Assembly (NCBI GenBank): GCA_964608745.1
Contig: CAZSPC010000001.1
Coordinates: forward strand, 750 to 64,749
DNA: 64,000 nucleotides
Source: an uncultured Candidatus Saccharibacteria bacterium
GTDB taxonomy: Bacteria > Patescibacteriota > Minisyncoccia > Phycocordibacterales > UBA12079
Direction: 5' to 3'
Under the pieces are notes generated by a model that ran no database searches, had not been told where the DNA came from, and worked only from the letters and a program-made list of their open reading frames with translations. This document shows positions 4,327-64,000 of the stretch, piece by piece (the first letter of the stretch is position 1; each line of letters starts with the position of its first letter). Made by a program: the position numbers and the translations under genes.

Positions 4327-4962
4327 ATGGAAATTCTGGGAAAATTATTTGGCTCACCTGCTCGGGTGAAAGTGATGAAGCTCTTTTTAGCTAACGAAGA
4401 GATTCCTTTTGATAACGAAGATATTTCAAAAAGAGCAAAAGTTCCAATGACTACATTAAGGAAAGAACTTAATTTGCTTTTAAAAGTTGGTCTTATTAAA
4501 AAGAAAGTTTTTTACAAAGAGGTTGAGAAGAAAATTAAAAAAACAAAAACAAAGCCGGCTCGGGTTGAGAAAATAAAAAAGAAAACAAATGGTTGGATAC
4601 TAAATGATAAATTTATCTATCTAATGCCTCTGTATAATCTTTTGGTTGGAACGTCTTCGTTTACTCCAAAAATAATTAATAAAAGATTGGTTGGTGTGGG
4701 TAGGCTTAAGCTAGTTTTAATTTCCGGGGTTTTGTTAAAAAATAGTGAGAGTCGTGTTGATTTGCTGGTGGTTGGTGATGGAATTAAGACTAGTTCTTTG
4801 GAGAAGGCTATTAAAACAATGGAATCTGAAATTGGAAAAGAATTAAAATACGCCGCTTTTGAAACCAATGACTTTATTTACCGGCTGAATATCTACGATA
4901 GACTGGTTCGAGATATTATTGACCATCCACATCAGAAAATAGTTAATAAAATTGGTGTTTAG
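4327..4962 (+). CDS. hypothetical protein with putative N-terminal winged-helix region (211 aa)
   Basis: ORF with terminator hairpin at 4975-5008; weak wHTH-like N-terminus. Confidence 0.4.
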   Translation: MEILGKLFGSPARVKVMKLFLANEEIPFDNEDISKRAKVPMTTLRKELNLLLKVGLIKKKVFYKEVEKKIKKTKTKPARVEKIKKKTNGWILNDKFIYLMPLYNLLVGTSSFTPKIINKRLVGVGRLKLVLISGVLLKNSESRVDLLVVGDGIKTSSLEKAIKTMESEIGKELKYAAFETNDFIYRLNIYDRLVRDIIDHPHQKIVNKIGV

Positions 4963-7008: not shown

Positions 7009-7116
7009 CTTAGCGTTTAGGGTTGTAGAGATGAATTTTGCCTTCGGCAAAATTCATCAAAGAAAAATCTTTGATTTTTCTACCTATACCCTAAACGCTG
7101 AACGCTAAACCCTATA
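7009..7116 (+). repeat. family A structured repeat upstream of rpsC
   Basis: agcgtttagggttgtag / gatgaattttgccttcggcaaaattcatc / agaaaaatctttgatttttct / ctacctataccctaaacgctgaacgctaaaccctat. Confidence 0.75.
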
Positions 7117-7777: not shown

Positions 7778-7882
7778 CGTCTAGCGTTTAGGGTTGTAGA
7801 GATGAATTTTGCCTTCGGCAAAATTCATCAAAGAAAAATCTTTGATTTTTCTACCTATACCCTAAACGCTGAACGCTATACT
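7775..7882 (+). repeat. family A structured repeat upstream of rplP
   Basis: near-identical to 7009-7116. Confidence 0.75.
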
Positions 7883-9242: not shown

Positions 9243-9355
9243 AAGCGTTTAGCGTTTAGGGTTGTAGGAATGAATTTTGCCTTCGGTAAAATTCATCAAA
9301 GAAAAATCTTTGATTTTTCTACCTATACCCTAAACGCTGAACGCTATACCCTAAG
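9243..9355 (+). repeat. family A structured repeat upstream of rplN
   Basis: same architecture as 7009-7116. Confidence 0.75.
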
Positions 9356-9733: not shown

Positions 9734-9833
9734 AGCGTTTAGCGTTATAGCATTTAGCGTTGTAGGGAAAATTTTGGCTTTAGCCAAAATTTAAAAAAAT
9801 CTATAACCCTAAACGCTAAACCCTACAACCCTA
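9734..9833 (+). repeat. family A structured repeat upstream of rplX (covarying hairpin aattttggctttagccaaaattt)
   Basis: arms agcgtttagcgttatagcatttagcgttgtag / ctataaccctaaacgctaaaccctacaaccctac. Confidence 0.7.
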
Positions 9834-33267: not shown

Positions 33268-33385
33268 TAGGGTTATAGGGCTTAGCGTTTAGGGTTATAG
33301 GTAAAAAACCTTTGATTTTTTGATGAATTTTGCCTTTGGCAAAATTTGTCTCCCTACACCCCTAAACGCTAATCGCTAAACGCTT
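33268..33385 (-). repeat. family A structured repeat upstream of rplT (inverted, matching gene orientation)
   Basis: order of inner hairpins is reversed on + strand, i.e. element is oriented with the minus-strand gene. Confidence 0.7.
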
Positions 33386-39545: not shown

Positions 39546-39625
39546 AAGCGTTTAGCGATTAGCGTTTAGGGTTGTAGAGAACAAATTTTTACTATAACCC
39601 TAAACGCTAAGCCCTATACCCTAAT
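39546..39625 (+). repeat. family A repeat (no central mini-hairpin) upstream of rpsL
   Basis: agcgtttagcgattagcgtttagggttgtag ... ctataaccctaaacgctaagccctataccct. Confidence 0.65.
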
Positions 39626-43090: not shown

Positions 43091-43296
43091 GATTTTTATT
43101 TTCAATTACTCATCTTTAAATTTTAGTAACCTAGTTACCGGGTAACCCAAGAAAAACGGTTTTTTATTTTGTCTTATTTTCTTTTTTTTGATTATCTAGT
43201 ATTAAGTAGTAAGGTGTAAGTAATAAGTTTTCTTTTTGATTTTTCAATGGTCCGTCAGCTGACGGACCATTGAATTTTTTGTGTTAAAATAAACTT

Positions 43297-46552: not shown

Positions 46553-46652
46553 AAGCGTTTAGCGTCCAGCGTTTAGCGTTGTAGTGAACAAATTTTGCCT
46601 TTGGCAAAATTTGTTAAAACCTATAACCCTAAACGCTAAACGCTAAACCCTA
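46553..46652 (+). repeat. family A structured repeat upstream of tuf
   Basis: agcgtttagcgtccagcgtttagcgttgtag / gaacaaattttgcctttggcaaaatttgtt / ctataaccctaaacgctaaacgctaaaccctat. Confidence 0.75.
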
Positions 46653-52627: not shown

Positions 52628-52750
52628 GGGTTTAGCGTCTAGTGTTTAGGGTTGTAGGAATGAATTTTGCCGAAGGCAAAATTCGTCAATGAAAAAATTG
52701 CTTTAGCAATTTTTTATCTATAACCCTAAACGCTAAACCCTACAACCCTA
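52628..52750 (+). repeat. family A structured repeat (two inner hairpins) upstream of rplW
   Basis: gtttagcgtctagtgtttagggttgtag / gaatgaattttgccgaaggcaaaattcgtc / gaaaaaattgctttagcaattttttatc / ctataaccctaaacgctaaaccctacaaccct. Confidence 0.75.
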
Positions 52751-53229: not shown

Positions 53230-54072
53230 ATGAAGACTAACAAACCAACAACACCATCACGAAGACATATGACAGGTATTAATTACCGAGATTTTTTGAC
53301 TACTTCAAAACCTAAGAAATCTCTAACAAAAGGAGGAAAAAGAGGTGTGGGACGAAACGCTTTTGGGAGAATTACTATGCGACATAGAGGTGGTGGTCAT
53401 AAAAGAAAATACCGACAAATTGATTTTAAATATAATAAATTTGATATTCCGGCAAAAATTGAAACTATCGAATATGATCCTTACCGATCAGGTTTTATTG
53501 CTTTAATTTGTTATCGGGACGGAGAAAGACGATACATTCTTGCTCCTAAATCTGTAAAGGTTGGAGATCAGATAATTGTTTCCGAAAAAGCACAATTGAA
53601 ACCAGGAAATAGATTAATTTTGAAAAATATTCCTGTTGGAACATTTGTATACAATGTTGAACTAAAACCACAATCAGGAGCAAAGATTGCTCGATCTGCT
53701 GGAAATTATGTAGAAGTGATTGCTCAAGATGCAGGTTATACTCATTTGAAAATGCCCTCAACAGAGGTTCGAAAAGTAATGGACACTGCTTGGGCTTCAA
53801 TTGGAGAAGTATCAAACGATGAACATAAACTTGTGACAATTGGAAAAGCTGGACGATCACGATGGATGGGGAAAAGACCAACGGTTCGAGGATCAGCTAT
53901 GAACCCAGTGGATCACCCATATGGTGGTGGTGAAGGTAAGGCAGGACGAGGAATGAGAAGAGCAAAGACTAAATGGGGTAAACCTGCTGGAAAAGGACAA
54001 AAGACAAGAAAACCAAAGAAATACTCAAATCCGTTTATTGTAAGACGACGTAAAGTCGGCAAACGAAAATAA
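53230..54072 (+). CDS. rplB: 50S ribosomal protein L2
   Basis: MKTNKPTTPSRRH aligns with L2 N-terminus; GTG at 53206 is a possible alternative start. Confidence 0.9.
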   Translation: MKTNKPTTPSRRHMTGINYRDFLTTSKPKKSLTKGGKRGVGRNAFGRITMRHRGGGHKRKYRQIDFKYNKFDIPAKIETIEYDPYRSGFIALICYRDGERRYILAPKSVKVGDQIIVSEKAQLKPGNRLILKNIPVGTFVYNVELKPQSGAKIARSAGNYVEVIAQDAGYTHLKMPSTEVRKVMDTAWASIGEVSNDEHKLVTIGKAGRSRWMGKRPTVRGSAMNPVDHPYGGGEGKAGRGMRRAKTKWGKPAGKGQKTRKPKKYSNPFIVRRRKVGKRK

Positions 54073-54221
54073 TAAAAAAGCATCGCCTAGGCGATGCTTT
54101 TTTATTATTTTCGTTTTCCGACTTTTCTAGTAATAAGTTGTAAGTAATAAGGATTAAGTAAAAAGGCTTTGTTGGATGATTTAAATAACTCAACCCGTTG
54201 AGTTATTTATCTTTATACCCT

Positions 54222-57326: not shown

Positions 57327-57361
57327 AAGTATTTTAGGATTATTTTTGAGGTATTAAAGTT

Positions 57362-57420
57362 AAAAAACTACCCTACGACGTTTTTAACGATCGTTAAAAA
57401 CGTCGTAGGGTAGTTTTTTA
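57362..57420 (+). terminator. long perfect-hairpin terminator after fpg
   Basis: aaaaaactaccctacgacgtttttaacg / cgttaaaaacgtcgtagggtagtttttt. Confidence 0.6.
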
Positions 57421-57487
57421 ACAATAATGTAGAATAATGGTACTCTTTATTAAAATTATCCTCGACTTTATAAAGTCGAGGATATAT

Positions 57488-57908: not shown

Positions 57909-58415
57909 ATGAAAAAAGTCGTTGTAAACGATAGAATGCAGAAAGGATATTCTTATAAATTAAGTGAGCCTATGGGGAAGAATTTTACCAATGATTTCAA
58001 GTCCGAACTAACTCCAAAAGAGATGTTGGAGCTAGGTGTATTTGGTGGTCGATATATAAGAGATTGCCAAAATGAATTCCCAAAAAGTTGGTTTAGACAG
58101 GCAAGGTTACACCCCAAAAATACCACAGGGCATAGTCCTGAATTGAATTATTTTAAAGTTGACGCTAGTCAACCACTTTCTGTCTGGAAAGAAAAGGGTT
58201 GGTTGTATAAAAATGACCCTCGTGGTTGGTTTCAGTGGTATTGTCGGTACTATATGGGCAGAAGAATTCCAGAAGAAGATGAAAGACAAATTGGTCGTTG
58301 GAAAGCATTTAAAAGGCATTTAGGGGCAGTAAAAAAGAACTGTAAAAGGAGTGACAAAAATTGTCGCCCAAAACAAAAACAAGCACTCTTACATTGGGCA
58401 TATGATTGTAGATAA
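57909..58415 (+). CDS. hypothetical conserved protein (168 aa, Trp/Arg-rich)
   Basis: DPRGWFQWYCRYYMGRR motif; family not assigned. Confidence 0.4.
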   Translation: MKKVVVNDRMQKGYSYKLSEPMGKNFTNDFKSELTPKEMLELGVFGGRYIRDCQNEFPKSWFRQARLHPKNTTGHSPELNYFKVDASQPLSVWKEKGWLYKNDPRGWFQWYCRYYMGRRIPEEDERQIGRWKAFKRHLGAVKKNCKRSDKNCRPKQKQALLHWAYDCR

Positions 58416-59749: not shown

Positions 59750-60670
59750 ATGCTTCGACTAATTCGTTTGATTACAGAAAATCATTACATAATTGTTGGC
59801 TCGGCTCTTTTGGTGGGTATTTTTTGTGCTGACAGCGTTATGTTTTTAGCAGAATACAGTACTTTAATTCTGGCTATAATTTTCTTTTTGAGTTCTCTGA
59901 AAATTGATTTAAGTAAAATAAAAACCAGTTTACATAAAACAAGAGATATTATTGCTGTTAATATTATCACTCTATTTGTGTTGCCGATTGTTGCTTATTA
60001 TTTAACAAGTATTTTTTATCCTCAATTAGCGATTGCTTTTTTGCTTCTTTCAGTTATGCCTGCGGGGATGACAGCACCTTTGTTGACAGAAATTGTGAAA
60101 GGAAAACAAAGTCTTGCTTTGATTTTAACAGTTTCGACTTCTTTGTTGGCACCAATTACCGCACCATTGATGATTAAATTTTTAATTGGAGCGAACATTG
60201 ATGTAAGTTTTTTTGATATGTTTTGGTTGCTTGCGAAGGTTATTTATATTCCATTTGTTTTGGCTCAGATAGTAAAAAAATTTTGGCAGAATAGTATTGA
60301 TAAGGTTTCAAACTTACTAAAACCACTATCAGTTATTTTATTAGGCTTATTGATTATGGTTATAGTAGCAAAACAAGCTGACACAATTTTAGAAAGTTTA
60401 AAAAACGGTGGAGAATACTTAATTTATTTAGGATTGCTTTTTGGCTTTTTCTTTCTACTACATTTTTTGGGATACTTTTCTTGTTTTTGGGAAAAAGAAA
60501 AAAGGTATCGGATTACTGTTGTAGTTTGTTTAACCTATATGAATTTTACCTTGGCGATTGAACTAGCAAATAATTTTTTCACAGAACCAAATGTAATTAT
60601 TCCAGTAGTTTTGTCTGTGATTCCTTGGTCGATTATGTTTATTCCATTTAAACGTATTATGTTAAAATAA
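59750..60670 (+). CDS. BASS (bile acid:sodium symporter) family-like transporter
   Basis: LLLSVMPAGMTAPLLTEIVKGKQSLALILTVSTSLLAPITAPL resembles the BASS signature; about 9 TM. Confidence 0.5.
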   Translation: MLRLIRLITENHYIIVGSALLVGIFCADSVMFLAEYSTLILAIIFFLSSLKIDLSKIKTSLHKTRDIIAVNIITLFVLPIVAYYLTSIFYPQLAIAFLLLSVMPAGMTAPLLTEIVKGKQSLALILTVSTSLLAPITAPLMIKFLIGANIDVSFFDMFWLLAKVIYIPFVLAQIVKKFWQNSIDKVSNLLKPLSVILLGLLIMVIVAKQADTILESLKNGGEYLIYLGLLFGFFFLLHFLGYFSCFWEKEKRYRITVVVCLTYMNFTLAIELANNFFTEPNVIIPVVLSVIPWSIMFIPFKRIMLK

Positions 60671-60675
60671 CAATT

Positions 60676-61251
60676 ATGAAAACTCTTATAATATATTCTC
60701 ACCCTGATACTGATGGTTATTGTGCTGAAACTTTGCGTCAGGTGGAGAAAAAGCTGAAACAGTTAAATAAAGAATATGAAATAATCGATTTGTATAAGAT
60801 TGATTATAATCCTGTGCTTCAAGAAGACGAACATTATACAGCAGGGAATAAAAGTATAAGTCAGCAAAACTTAGAAATTCAAGAAAAAATAAAGCTGGCA
60901 CAAAATTTAATTTTTATTTATCCAATTTGGTGGGGTAGTATGCCGGCTATTTTGAAAGGTTTTTTTGATCGGATTTTGACTTCTGGTTTTGCGTTTAAAT
61001 TCAAGGATAAAGGAGGGGTGAGTGGACTTTTAAAAAACAAGAAAGCTGTAATATTTGTTTCAAGTGGAGGGCCTCAAATTAATTATCTTTGGTTTGATGC
61101 AAATAAGAGAATCATTAAAAATAAAATTTTAGGATTTTGTGGGATTGATACAAAAATATTTCAAGTTTATAAGGCGTATCAATTGGATGATAAAAAGAAA
61201 AAAGAGATTGCACAAAATATTGAGAGAGGATTAAGTTTTTTAAAGTTATAA
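60676..61251 (+). CDS. flavodoxin-like fold NAD(P)H-dependent oxidoreductase (NAD(P)H dehydrogenase (quinone) family)
   Basis: MKTLIIYSHPDTDGYCAE...IFIYPIWWGSMPAILKGFFDRI. Confidence 0.6.
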   Translation: MKTLIIYSHPDTDGYCAETLRQVEKKLKQLNKEYEIIDLYKIDYNPVLQEDEHYTAGNKSISQQNLEIQEKIKLAQNLIFIYPIWWGSMPAILKGFFDRILTSGFAFKFKDKGGVSGLLKNKKAVIFVSSGGPQINYLWFDANKRIIKNKILGFCGIDTKIFQVYKAYQLDDKKKKEIAQNIERGLSFLKL

Positions 61252-61314
61252 ATTTTTTAAGGTTTCTCATTCTAATATTCTAACGAATGTTAGAATGAGG
61301 AAATATATTGGTTT

Positions 61315-61911
61315 ATGAAAAAATATGAAATAAAAAATTTTGAAGTAGAAAAATTGGAGGGGATTTCTGAAAAACAAATTGAGGAGCATTTGAAACTTTA
61401 TGCTGGTTATGTGAATCATACAAATTTGATTCGAGAAAAAATTAAGGAATTATCCAAAGACAAGGAAAATAATAACTATATTATTTCTGAGCTTCGCAGA
61501 CGCTTTGGTTTTGAATTCAATGGAATGCGAATGCATGAATATTATTTTGAACAATTTGAGGGTGGTGCAAAAGAATTAAATCAGGAAAGTAAGTTGGCAC
61601 AATCTTTGGTTGAAAAATATGGAAGCGTTGAATTGGCAATTGACCATTTAAAAGAAGTTGGAATGAGTCGGGGAATTGGTTGGGCGGTTTTATATTTTGA
61701 TCCGGTCGCACAAACTCCACATACTGTTTTTGTGGCTGATCACGAGATTGGTCAATTAGCTGGGCTACCAATCTTACTGGTAATTGATATGTGGGAACAT
61801 GCTTTTATGGTTGATTATGTTCCTGGGGAAAAAGGCAAGTATATAGACTCATTTTTGAAAAATCTTAATTGGGAGGTTGTTGAAAGGAGATTTAATAAGA
61901 TTATTAGCTAA
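61315..61911 (+). CDS. Fe/Mn superoxide dismutase family protein (divergent N-terminus)
   Basis: GWAVLYFD...PILLVIDMWEHAFMVDY matches the SOD C-terminal D-x-WEHAYY signature; KHH replaced by KLY. Confidence 0.65.
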   Translation: MKKYEIKNFEVEKLEGISEKQIEEHLKLYAGYVNHTNLIREKIKELSKDKENNNYIISELRRRFGFEFNGMRMHEYYFEQFEGGAKELNQESKLAQSLVEKYGSVELAIDHLKEVGMSRGIGWAVLYFDPVAQTPHTVFVADHEIGQLAGLPILLVIDMWEHAFMVDYVPGEKGKYIDSFLKNLNWEVVERRFNKIIS

Positions 61912-61924
61912 TTAAAAAATAAAT

Positions 61925-62335
61925 ATGTTAATAGAATGGAAAAAAGAATATGAAATTGGTATTAAGACGATCGATGAACAACATAGTGGTCTTGTTAATG
62001 TAATGAATAGACTGAATGAAAAAATTGATACCAATGAATTTTCTGATTCAGAAGTAATCACTTCTCTTTTAGATGATTTGGTAGAGTATACCAAAAACCA
62101 CTTTGGTTTTGAAGAAAGGTATATGGAAGAATTTGATTTTGAATATAAAGATGAGCATAAAAAAGCCCATAATTCTTTTGTTGAAAAAGTTATTGAATTA
62201 ACTAAGAAATATGAAGAAGATAATGTGGAGACTTGTTTTGAATTGATAGATTATTTAGAGGATTGGTTTATTACCCATGTTACAGGAGAAGATCGTAGAT
62301 ATGTTGATTTGTTTTTATCAAAAGGTATTAAGTAA
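61925..62335 (+). CDS. bacteriohemerythrin-like protein, copy 2
   Basis: W...YEIGIKTIDEQHSGLVNVMNRL...HF-FEE hemerythrin pattern. Confidence 0.6.
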   Translation: MLIEWKKEYEIGIKTIDEQHSGLVNVMNRLNEKIDTNEFSDSEVITSLLDDLVEYTKNHFGFEERYMEEFDFEYKDEHKKAHNSFVEKVIELTKKYEEDNVETCFELIDYLEDWFITHVTGEDRRYVDLFLSKGIK

Positions 62336-62337
62336 GT

Positions 62338-62375
62338 AAAAAAGAACTGTACAATTAATTGTACAGTTCTTTTTA
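62338..62375. terminator. bidirectional terminator between convergent genes
   Basis: aaaaagaactgtacaattaattgtacagttcttttt. Confidence 0.6.
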
Positions 62376-62380
62376 CTTTC

Positions 62381-62797
62381 TTAATTTTCACAAATAATTT
62401 CCCACTCGTTTTCTGTTACTTCTAGTGTTTCCTTACACTCTTCTGTCATTGAATTTGGCGCTACAACAGGACAAGAAAATCGTGAACCACCATCTATCGG
62501 ATAATAAGAAGAGCCACTTCCTGGAAGTCCGCTAACAACTTTTATAAATTCTTCACTTAGGAGAACGGTAGATACTCCCATATTGTCACAATATTTTTTA
62601 GCCAATTCTTTTATTGACTCTGTTTCTTCGGTCGTAGTTCCTTGTTGGTTGTTTTCTTCTTTAATTATTGTTTCAGTATTTGCTGTTTGTGTATCAGCCC
62701 CAATGATTTCTTCGTTTGGGTTTTGGCTGTTGTAGTAGGTTAAGATTAACCACCCGGCAACCAGGATTGCTAAAATTATAATAAGTTTTTTAATCAT
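62381..62797 (-). CDS. secreted/anchored hypothetical protein (138 aa)
   Basis: N-terminal TM; Thr/Glu-rich linker; C-terminal Cys pairs. Confidence 0.4.
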   Translation of the reverse strand: MIKKLIIILAILVAGWLILTYYNSQNPNEEIIGADTQTANTETIIKEENNQQGTTTEETESIKELAKKYCDNMGVSTVLLSEEFIKVVSGLPGSGSSYYPIDGGSRFSCPVVAPNSMTEECKETLEVTENEWEIICEN

Positions 62798-62885
62798 ATT
62801 TTAATTGGTAGTTGTTAGTTTATGGTGAATAGAAAAAATTCTAAAAACTAAAAACTATTTAACTATATTAATTATTTAATTACTT

Positions 62886-63074
62886 CTATAATATTGTATC
62901 ATTTTTTTCTTTCAATTCACTGACCTCATTTTTTGTTGTTTCGTGTTTTGTTTTTTTACATTTCTTTTTGGGTTTGATTCCGATGTTTTTTACGACACCT
63001 TTAAGTCTAGGGGCAACTCTTAATTTACCCCAAAATCTTTGCCAACCTCTTCCTTTTTTTCTTATTTTTATCAT
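62886..63074 (-). CDS. small highly basic hypothetical protein (62 aa)
   Basis: ORF divergent from AbrB-like gene; no motif. Confidence 0.3.
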   Translation of the reverse strand: MIKIRKKGRGWQRFWGKLRVAPRLKGVVKNIGIKPKKKCKKTKHETTKNEVSELKEKNDTIL

Positions 63075-63106
63075 ACCTATATTGTATCATTTTAGGGGGA
63101 ATAAGG

Positions 63107-63146
63107 TATCATACAAGTATCGTACTAGTACGATACTTGTATGATA
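63107..63146. promoter_or_regulatory. 40-bp perfect palindrome, candidate operator
   Basis: tatcatacaagtatcgtact|agtacgatacttgtatgata, 12 bp upstream of the AbrB-like ORF. Confidence 0.45.
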
Positions 63147-63157
63147 CAATATTAGAT

Positions 63158-63313
63158 ATGACAAAAGAAATTAGAAAAATAACTAGAACAAGTCGAGGAA
63201 CTTATTATATTAGTATCCCCAAAGAACTAATTAAAGAATTAAGGTTTAAAGAAAAACAGAAAGTCGTTGTTAAGAAAAGAGGCAAGGGAATCTTGATTGA
63301 GGATTGGAAGTAA
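63158..63313 (+). CDS. AbrB/MazE/SpoVT-type swapped-hairpin DNA-binding micro-protein (51 aa)
   Basis: TRTSRGTYYISIPKELIKELRFKEKQKVVVKKRGKGILIE resembles the SpoVT-AbrB domain; below the ORF-track size cutoff. Confidence 0.45.
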   Translation: MTKEIRKITRTSRGTYYISIPKELIKELRFKEKQKVVVKKRGKGILIEDWK

Positions 63314-63332
63314 TTTTTTTGATTCACTGAAA

Positions 63333-63552
63333 GAAAAAATCCCTATTCACGTTGATAGGGATTAAAGAAGGGGACAAACGGTTAAGTTTGTCCCCTTTCA
63401 GCATCAGCCAGATTCGTTCTGGCAGAAAGCTGGAGGCCGGAGACTACTCAATGGTGGTACCGGCGGCCGGGCAGGTTACGGAATTTTCATTTCTAAAAAA
63501 TAAAGTTTTGGATACAGGGTGTCCTCGGGTCATGGCGGGGTCTCCTTTTTGA
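63333..63552 (+). ncRNA. GC-rich multi-hairpin region, candidate structured ncRNA or cis-regulatory leader
   Basis: about 50% GC in a one-third-GC genome; nested perfect hairpins (atccctat..atagggat, ggggacaaacggttaagtttgtcccc, gccagattcgttctggc) closed by ctgaaag/ctttcag; GGTGGTACCG resembles the T-box core; ends in T-run. Confidence 0.25.
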
Positions 63553-63786
63553 AAATTTGTCAAGTGTTTTTTGTTGACTTTTTGTTTTTAAAAGACTAAT
63601 GTGTATTTAGAAATTAGAGAATTGTATTTTGAAAAATTTATCTCAAAGGATATCGTGCTCACCATAAAATATGTATTTAAGTATTTATTTTATGGTGAAG
63701 TGGGATATCCTCGTTTCATCCTGCTAGTATGCTAGTGGAATAGTCCTTGGATTATTATTTTGATCCTTTTGTTTTAGGAGGAAGTC

Positions 63787-64000
63787 ATGATTGAGTTAGA
63801 TGATGGTGTTAAGAGAATGTTGGAGAGATCTAATTTTTATAGTTTAGGTCATGGTGTTGGTCAAAATTTTAATGGATTTACTGTAAAGACAGAAGTAGTT
63901 CCTATGAGAATTTTCCAGTATTTCATCACTAATTTGTTTTTACAAAAAGATAAAGAAGAAAAAAACAGAGAGAATTTTTTGATTACCCTGTTAAATCTTT
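63787..64000 (+). CDS. hypothetical protein, 3'-truncated by window end
   Basis: strong SD AGGAGGAAGTC + ATG; open to window end. Confidence 0.4.
   Translation, partial: MIELDDGVKRMLERSNFYSLGHGVGQNFNGFTVKTEVVPMRIFQYFITNLFLQKDKEEKNRENFLITLLNL

Follow-up and report, generated by a model that had tools for sequence, protein, structure and literature searches.

A 51-residue protein of the AbrB/MazE/SpoVT fold and the phased palindrome that is most likely its own operator in a Candidatus Saccharibacteria genome

The DNA described here is a stretch of 64,000 nucleotides (the window) from contig CAZSPC010000001.1 of an uncultured Candidatus Saccharibacteria bacterium, and the subject of this analysis is a small gene near its right end together with the long perfect palindrome that precedes it. 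The gene encodes a protein of 51 residues with the AbrB/MazE/SpoVT fold, and the palindrome, which is composed of four short units in helical phase, is most likely the protein's own operator, as judged from sequence comparison. It is probable that the protein is a miniature AbrB-type repressor that would act on this phased operator, regulate its own gene as well as small local regulons, and have no toxin as a partner. Regulation in the candidate phyla radiation (CPR, or Patescibacteria) is almost unstudied, and the locus would provide a clean repressor-operator pair, with a protein of 51 residues and a four-unit site of 42 bp. The elements on which the argument depends are the following:

63158–63313, plus strand: coding sequence of the 51-residue protein (MTKEIRK...EDWK), stop codon included; assigned from Pfam, the structural model and the homologues
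63106–63114, 63117–63125, 63128–63136 and 63139–63147, without strand: the four proposed operator units, matches to GTAYSRTAC
63142–63150, plus strand: predicted extended -10 element TGaTACAAT, with the TG at 63142–63143 and the hexamer at 63145–63150

The protein and its family

The reading frame goes from an ATG at 63158 to a TAA that ends at 63313, and its product is the one quoted in an earlier reading of this DNA that used the sequence only. A listing of open reading frames extends the frame to a TTG at 63137 (58 residues); the proteins of the closest homologues start at the methionine encoded by the ATG. An identical protein of 51 residues is present in a public protein collection, where it carries a precomputed match to PF04014 (MazE_antitoxin, SpoVT/AbrB domain). 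In the present analysis this domain was found at residues 10–48, with an E-value of 2.5e-7 and a score of 31.0 bits (the gathering score being 24.7). The sequence-only reading had proposed a resemblance to the AbrB, MazE and SpoVT domains and had named the lack of any SpoVT-AbrB profile match as the result that would count against it; the match lies above its threshold and the predicted fold agrees with it. The NCBIfam model for AbrB, TIGR01439, gives 12.5 bits, below its cut-off of 28.3.

The AlphaFold2 model, calculated for the monomer from 49 homologous sequences, has a predicted local distance difference test score of 79 and a beta-beta-alpha-beta-beta arrangement (strands at residues 7–10, 16–19, 36–41 and 44–50, helix at residues 22–28). 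When it is compared with the PDB by Foldseek, the top ranks are occupied by SpoVT, AbrB, MazE, C56, C68, a Sulfolobus AbrB-like protein and an AbrB-type VapB, and a PDB search with the family profile returns AbrB-fold chains only. Residues R6 and K7 are invariant in the 49 sequences and align with the V-R-K of AbrB in the profile-to-PDB alignments, so that the conserved basic residues near the N-terminus expected for DNA contact (the region of R8 in AbrB) are found here as R6 and K7. The protein as a whole is very basic, with 16 lysines and arginines and 6 aspartates and glutamates in 51 residues. On the evidence of sequence and model, it is a minimal, single-domain member of the AbrB/MazE/SpoVT fold, and the assignment is sound. 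A profile search of the window revealed no paralogue; one weak match, at 58147–58320, overlaps a gene of 168 residues in another frame.

The protein belongs to a sizeable group. There are 49 homologues with E-values of 0.01 or less, all of which match PF04014 at E ≤ 0.01, and 562 cluster representatives (50% identity) reach E ≤ 1e-3. In species-representative genomes, 54 loci were collected, and six assemblies contain two copies. Their source is almost always a Patescibacteria/CPR lineage, for example Paceibacterota, Moranbacteria, Falkowbacteria, Nomurabacteria or Saccharibacteria, and only a few belong to metagenome-assembled genomes labelled otherwise. The members have 51–60 residues and share the signature RK...P...KEKQKVVVKK-x-GxG-x-LI-x-DWK, which is complete in the window protein. 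The alignment shows that the C-terminal half is strongly conserved (KEKQKVVVKK-x-GKG-x-LI-x-DWK) and that the chain ends in a conserved DWK(K), and the part near the N-terminus that separates RK from P21 varies. Among the papers of the library that was searched, none links AbrB with CPR or Patescibacteria. These proteins form a coherent and apparently undescribed subfamily of small AbrB-like proteins to which the window protein belongs; the phased repeats that characterise the subfamily within 80 nt upstream of its genes take the form of a four-unit array in the window. Variations on this architecture were also observed: a distant relative of 226 residues (P0062) has four tandem AbrB-like domains in one chain, and locus L026 contains two family genes in tandem, approximately 400 nt apart (2154–2230 and 2562–2646).

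A phased palindrome at the predicted promoter

The sequence-only reading had reported a perfect palindrome of 40 bp at a distance of 12 bp from the gene. The palindrome exists (tatcatacaagtatcgtact and agtacgatacttgtatgata, 63107–63146) and it does lie upstream, but a palindrome search adds one more base on each side, which gives a true length of 42 bp at 63106–63147 (the proposed operator, with arms GTATCATACAAGTATCGTACT and AGTACGATACTTGTATGATAC), and the gap to the ATG is 10 nt. In an inverted-repeat search, the extension of this palindrome gives arms of 27 nt at 93% identity. The window is AT-rich (34% G+C), and from its base composition approximately 1e-7 such palindromes would be expected by chance in 64 kb (0.276^21 × 64,000). 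The palindrome consists of four 9-bp dyad-like units, GTAYSRTAC, in a phase of 11 bp, and this pattern has four matches in the 64 kb, all of them inside the palindrome. The sequence-only reading would have taken its presence at many unrelated sites as the mark of a generic repeat; the 20-mer half-operator, with up to three mismatches allowed, has no other match in the window (and none is expected from shuffled sequence). A metagenome scan with the 15-mer GTATCATACAAGTAT returned at least 120 loci with one match each, none with both arms or with a family gene, and these matches are chance hits.

The rightmost unit of the palindrome overlaps the extended -10 element TGaTACAAT. The ATG at 63158 follows the -10 hexamer after 7 nt (its A is the eighth), and there is no Shine-Dalgarno sequence in between. 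Because the start codon lies only 7 nt past the -10, the messenger RNA is probably leaderless, with a transcription start predicted from the sequence. The layout TGnTAnnnT-N6-7-ATG precedes 9 of the 70 crude gene calls in the window and a Shine-Dalgarno-like motif precedes only 12 of them, so that a leaderless messenger is plausible for this organism; in the family, the same layout is found in front of 21% of the genes, compared with 8% of the controls. In these gene calls the extended -10 element (TGTTAnAAT) ends 6–7 nt ahead of the ATG, for example of the ATGs at 4327, 16981, 26500, 34467, 43297, 54923, 57909, 59750 and 60676, a pattern that suggests that leaderless transcription and translation are widespread in the organism.

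The role attributed to the palindrome draws on the comparison of related loci. In one homologous locus (L184) the protein is 94% identical and the palindrome is identical in 42 of 42 positions. The coding sequences of the two loci share 81% of their nucleotides, with 20 of the 51 codons synonymously changed and only 59% of the third positions identical, and over the 60 nt that precede the palindrome there is no alignment (27/60); at the rate observed for third positions, the probability of an unchanged palindrome is approximately 2e-10. A more distant homologue (L185, 78% identity) has four units in the same 11-bp phase, GTATCGCAC-aa-GTATCGTAC-ta-GTATCGTAC-tt-GTATGATAC, the third of which is in direct orientation, and this destroys the perfect palindrome. 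Since the phased units are kept there without the palindrome, the constraint falls on the units and their phase, and not on hairpin potential. A third relative (L001, 88% protein identity) has three units.

The association extends to the family. The regions upstream of 57 non-redundant family genes were compared with 148 intergenic upstream regions taken from the same loci as controls; a perfect inverted repeat whose arms measure 11 nt or more lies within 80 nt of the start in 46% of the former and 2% of the latter (Fisher p = 4e-14). Many members have direct repeats upstream instead: the distances between repeated 6-mers concentrate at 12 bp (104 pairs in 27 loci), 24 bp (30 pairs) and 11 bp (16 pairs), compared with 3, 0 and 5 pairs in the control region. 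The motifs themselves are specific to lineages, for example TATTTAAATA, CTCTAGAG, TACGTA cores, GACCCA/TGGGTC and AGGGTAAC. The number of upstream 8-mers shared by a pair of loci rises from 0.75 to 4.6 as the identity of the N-terminal segment (residues 8–20) increases, and far-upstream and downstream controls remain flat. In two relatives the operator is also found away from its own gene: L001 carries an additional array (GTATCATAC-aa-GTATGATAT-ag-GTATACTAC) directly ahead of the TATAAT-N6-ATG of an adjacent gene of 138 residues, and L003 has another copy of the operator core AGGGTAACGGTACCCT, complete with the T-rich spacer and the promoter, before other genes 1.5 kb upstream. Another locus, L025, has a second copy of its operator motif AATACTTATTATAATAGGTATTTTAATACTTATT at 626–665, 1.8 kb upstream of the family gene; this copy is followed only by an open reading frame of five codons and may be a decayed cassette. 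Of the earlier suggestion of an autoregulated regulator or antitoxin with its operator, the operator part is supported by the 42/42 conservation, the enrichment in the family and the overlap with the -10, and the antitoxin part is not.

A mechanism can be proposed on this basis. By analogy with the AbrB fold, the protein should form a strand-swapped homodimer, and several dimers would bind the four 11-bp-phased GTAYSRTAC units on roughly one face of the helix, both the binding and its stoichiometry being predictions. The array would span from approximately the -35 region of a putative divergent promoter on the minus strand (with its -10 at 63086–63081) to the TG/-10 of the gene itself. Because it covers both elements, an occupied array would exclude RNA polymerase, which would result in negative autoregulation of the probably leaderless messenger and perhaps in co-repression of the divergent transcript. 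Since the same operator also precedes a neighbouring gene in close relatives, the protein probably controls small local regulons, and not a toxin.

Several points weigh against this interpretation. The operator/repressor model is built wholly on sequence comparison and prediction. The Foldseek scores are weak (E-values of 0.28–4, TMq of 0.5–0.58), and the scores of the fold search and of the PDB sequence search are, individually, all weak (E-values of 0.1–4); weak scores are to be expected when a 51-residue monomer of an intertwined dimer, that is, a half-barrel, is modelled. A scan of the window with a position weight matrix built from 14 units found no other phased pair of units above the shuffled background, so there is no second target in the 64 kb. 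In approximately 40% of the family genes, no inverted repeat whose arms reach 9 nt lies upstream; direct repeats take its place in some of them, and a few show no obvious upstream feature. The N-terminal segment and the upstream motifs are only modestly correlated (Spearman 0.18), and the signal is in part phylogenetic. Finally, the palindrome of L003 and L006 adjoins the 3' end of the upstream gene, and that of L003, with a T-run behind it, could double as a terminator.

The significance of the locus lies partly in the comparative data, which extend the pair to a family of several hundred pairs that would differ in specificity. These should be useful for understanding how the tiny swapped-hairpin fold reads DNA, and they may provide compact orthogonal parts. 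The labels of “MazE antitoxin” carried by these proteins do not indicate toxin-antitoxin systems, and a likely habit of mis-annotation is corrected in this way. A broader idea, which we regard as unlikely, is that the family is a CPR-wide toolkit of orthogonal repressor-operator pairs. In that case a hypervariable N-terminal recognition segment would co-evolve with operator arrays phased at 11–12 bp, and the operator, together with its promoter, would be copied ahead of neighbouring genes, or moved as a cassette, to wire small local regulons in genomes with very few other transcription factors. If this were true, the code by which the swapped-hairpin fold recognises DNA could be read from the family, and uncultivated Patescibacteria would have their first defined regulator-operator pairs.

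Known systems and rival readings

The nearest known systems each share some features with the window protein. The N-domain of AbrB and Abh of Bacillus subtilis (1yfb, 1z0r, 2k1n) is the same swapped-hairpin type of beta-beta-alpha-beta-beta domain of approximately 50 residues; its V-R-K is aligned with the conserved Arg-Lys with which strand 1 of the window protein begins, and both proteins are basic, bind DNA and repress promoters (binding and repression being predicted for the window protein). AbrB autoregulates. However, it is a protein of approximately 95 residues with an additional C-terminal multimerisation domain of approximately 40 residues, and it acts at many promoters with a loose consensus, whereas the window protein is the bare domain, has a crisp, unique and phased operator and does not reach the cut-off of TIGR01439. 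Neither that score nor the absence of a multimerisation domain agrees with the suggestion that it is a transition-state regulator in the sense of AbrB. For MazE, PemI/Kis and the AbrB-type VapB (1ub4, 1mvf, 2mrn, 6ifm), the likeness is that PF04014 is the best-scoring family of the window protein. MazE-type antitoxins have a small dimeric DNA-binding N-domain and are autoregulated through palindromic operators over their promoter. The window protein differs from them in that it lacks a C-terminal tail for toxin binding, and a partner toxin is found neither at this locus nor conserved in the family. MraZ, also with an AbrB-like fold, binds an array of short repeats spaced by approximately one helical turn in its own promoter region and represses it. 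MraZ has two tandem domains in approximately 150 residues, forms large oligomers, heads the dcw cluster and recognises direct repeats, whereas the window protein has one domain and dyad-like units at 11 bp, a spacing that is 12 bp in most relatives; the contexts vary, and the neighbours in the window are not dcw genes. The archaeal proteins that consist of the domain only (Sso7c4-type, 5itm/5itj/2l66; C68 of pSSVx, 3o27; C56 of pSSVi, 7xi6) are of the same size (48–68 residues), equally basic, closest in architecture and the best sequence matches in the PDB, yet the similarity is marginal (E-values of 0.1–0.3); they are archaeal or plasmid-borne, whereas the window family has specific repeats close to its promoters. 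Sso7c4-type proteins are described as non-specific binders. Judged by sequence and model, then, the window protein is a member of the SpoVT/AbrB superfamily that fails the defining features of MazE, of AbrB proper and of MraZ, and by analogy its operator logic is most like that of MraZ or of MazE/AbrB, with arrays or palindromes over the gene's own promoter.

The notion that the locus is a type II toxin-antitoxin system, in which the protein would be a MazE/VapB-like antitoxin, the palindrome the operator of the system, and the toxin either a divergent open reading frame of 62 residues on the minus strand or the downstream gene, had been raised in the sequence-only reading and is the one to which we give the least credence. 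Its appeal is clear: the best Pfam family is named MazE_antitoxin, some sources label homologues as the antitoxin component of MazEF, and toxin-antitoxin operons are typically autoregulated through palindromes. A palindromic operator at the gene's own promoter, which is indeed found here, is shared with regulators that are not part of such systems and is thus not diagnostic. The domain occupies residues 10–48 and the chain ends three residues later, without the tail that would bind a toxin. The 62-residue frame is divergent and not co-transcribed, and it is missing at all homologous loci; it was rejected as a toxin candidate, as the only homologue retrieved for it among 5.8 billion proteins was itself and no family was assigned to it in Pfam, NCBIfam or PADLOC. 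The next coding sequence on the plus strand begins 474 nt downstream, and the same three resources revealed no toxin family in the flanking open reading frames of the window, so the search for a partner toxin that had been advised gave none. Downstream of 36 homologues, 47 Pfam families were counted, none more than twice, and MazF/PemK, PIN and Doc are absent from the 25 most frequent families listed; the neighbours include RNase HII, a Mur ligase, glycosyltransferases, a 2-hydroxyacid dehydrogenase, RhuM and a Tsp45I/EcoRI-methylase pair. It is also very improbable that the palindrome is a nucleic-acid hairpin (a terminator, an attenuator or a generic repeat) that happens to lie upstream of the gene. 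The genome is rich in long perfect palindromes that resemble terminators, and in L003 the corresponding palindrome comes after a gene and before a T-run. In the window, however, no gene end of either strand adjoins 63106–63147 and the flanking frames diverge, the palindrome has neither a T-run nor A- or T-run flanks, the terminator scan does not call it, and it is unique; to judge from the predicted -10, transcription would start downstream of it, L185 keeps the phased units in a broken palindrome, and many family members have direct repeats at a 12-bp period, which are not hairpins. On its position, its flanks and the L185 variant, it was rejected as one of the terminator palindromes of this genome.

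Two further readings accept that the protein binds DNA or that the palindrome belongs with the gene, and interpret the association differently. According to one of them, the protein is a non-specific, chromatin-like binder of the archaeal Sso7c4 type and the palindrome serves another factor, which is in keeping with a very basic single domain whose best sequence relatives in the PDB include the “histone-like” Sulfolobus AbrB-family proteins (5itm, 5itj, 2l66). The tight association of family genes with phased repeats, the motifs of which are specific to lineages, argues instead for specific recognition, and paralogues of one genome differ in their upstream repeats (L001 and L057 of LSNR01; L018 and L024 of JBNKMC01). 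The variable N-terminal half of AbrB is the part that contacts DNA, and this was also counted against the chromatin-like binder, which we consider improbable. According to the other, which has a similarly small chance of being correct, operator and gene form a mobile or invertible cassette, with the palindrome or flanking inverted repeats as recombination sites and regulation as a secondary matter. The homology between the window and L001 is limited to the palindrome and the gene, in unrelated contexts; several genomes have two copies; copies of operator plus promoter are duplicated beside neighbouring genes; and the cassette of L184 lies between perfect inverted repeats of 76 nt (1–76 and 419–494). 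Nevertheless, neither transposases nor recombinases are linked to the family, a scan of viral contigs with the family profile gave no related sequence, and the synteny of L003 and L006 (enolase ... 2-hydroxyacid dehydrogenase) points to vertical descent. Inverted repeats of this kind do not flank the cassette in the window, and in L184 the left arm of the repeat begins at base 1 of a 727-nt metagenome contig assembled with MEGAHIT and may be an assembly artefact. The same contig contains a third, partial copy of the 76-nt repeat at 556–574.

Neighbouring elements

The surroundings of the gene contain several elements that are of interest in their own right. They are the following:

63079–63093, minus strand: copy of a 15-nt repeat, AAAATGATACAATAT, with a putative extended -10 (TG at 63089–63088, TACAAT at 63086–63081)
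62891–62905, minus strand: second copy of the 15-nt repeat, in the 3' end of the 62-residue open reading frame and approximately 94 nt upstream of a gene of 138 residues
62886–63074, minus strand: divergent, very basic orphan open reading frame of 62 residues, seen in the sequence and of uncertain coding status
63068–63076, without strand: degenerate operator-like unit TTATCATAC, weak (pair score 7.6 bits)
63367–63398, plus strand: strong hairpin with a GC-rich stem of 12 bp and a loop of 6 nt, 54 nt past the stop codon

The half-site fragments that the sequence-only reading had noticed at 62895 and 63085 belong to a true repeat, ATATTGTATCATTTT, present as an exact 15-nt direct repeat at 62891–62905 and 63079–63093, and its reverse complement ATGATACAATAT is found at 63141–63152, where it overlaps the right end of the palindrome. 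These copies are better read as duplicated extended -10 elements (TGATACAAT) that include a half unit (GTATCAT) than as half-sites, because the shared 12–15-mer reaches into the -10, beyond the palindrome unit, and because each copy sits where a promoter of the minus strand would be. The copy at 63079–63093 is 6 nt before the ATG of the 62-residue frame. The one at 62891–62905 is a possible promoter of the 138-residue gene on the minus strand (62381–62797), and a promoter scan detects a promoter-like site, TTGAAA-16-TATTAT, at 62915–62888.

The divergent basic frame that had been described opposite the gene is present. Its first codons, MIKIRK, resemble the MTKEIRK of the regulator, and its 5' end has the appearance of a partial duplication, in inverted orientation, of the promoter and start of the regulator; the frame itself may be young or spurious. 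The operator-like unit TTATCATAC overlaps its start codon and lies 38 bp from the first unit of the palindrome, off the 11-bp phase. The frame is contained in a unit of 188 bp (62891–63093) bounded by the exact 15-nt direct repeat, and this arrangement suggests that a local duplication or insertion gave rise to a new divergent open reading frame with the promoter and first codons of the regulator. Other neighbours in the window are a superoxide dismutase, a hemerythrin and the 138-residue protein, which is secreted. A PADLOC match to AbiEi (E = 0.012, 13 bits) was dismissed as noise.

Downstream of the gene, the hairpin at 63367–63398 is either the terminator of the regulator transcript or the start of a structured region; only three T follow it, which makes the terminator role uncertain. 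A G+C-rich island at 63338–63550, directly downstream of the gene on the plus strand, folds into multiple hairpins, with a minimum free energy of -95 kcal/mol (z = -5.9) for the plus strand and of -71 kcal/mol (z = -4.0) for the minus strand, and it ends in a terminator-like stem and T-run at 63523–63550. Rfam returned nothing credible for it, whether at the gathering threshold for the whole window, at an E-value threshold for 60000–64000 or for 63300–63800, and no similarity to it was found in any of the fetched loci; the island may be an unclassified small RNA. Farther on, an imperfect palindrome of approximately 66 nt (63646–63712, AAGGATATCGTGCTCACCATAAAATA...TATTTTATGGTGAAGTGGGATATCCT) lies approximately 75 nt upstream of the open reading frame that starts at 63787, which runs off the window and has no family match.

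Two kinds of repeat are characteristic of the window as a whole. Perfect palindromes without a loop are found at 57359–57422 (64 bp), 54061–54116 (56 bp), 62339–62374 (36 bp) and 43243–43274 (32 bp), with arms of 16–32 nt; they are located at the 3' ends of genes, two of them between convergent genes, with A-run and T-run flanks, and they are apparently the (bidirectional) terminators of this genome. The other kind is an abundant intergenic repeat of the heptamers CCCTAAA/CGCTAAA (CCTAAACGCT, 30 matches with up to one mismatch, compared with 2.4 expected), for example at 7012–7099, 7783–7870, 9251–9338, 9734–9817, 33284–33370, 39561–39608, 46568–46637 and 52641–52734. It occurs as inverted pairs approximately 40–85 bp apart around a terminator-like hairpin, often just before the next ATG, and the heptamer motif resembles the operator of L003 and L006, CCCTAACGCTGG.

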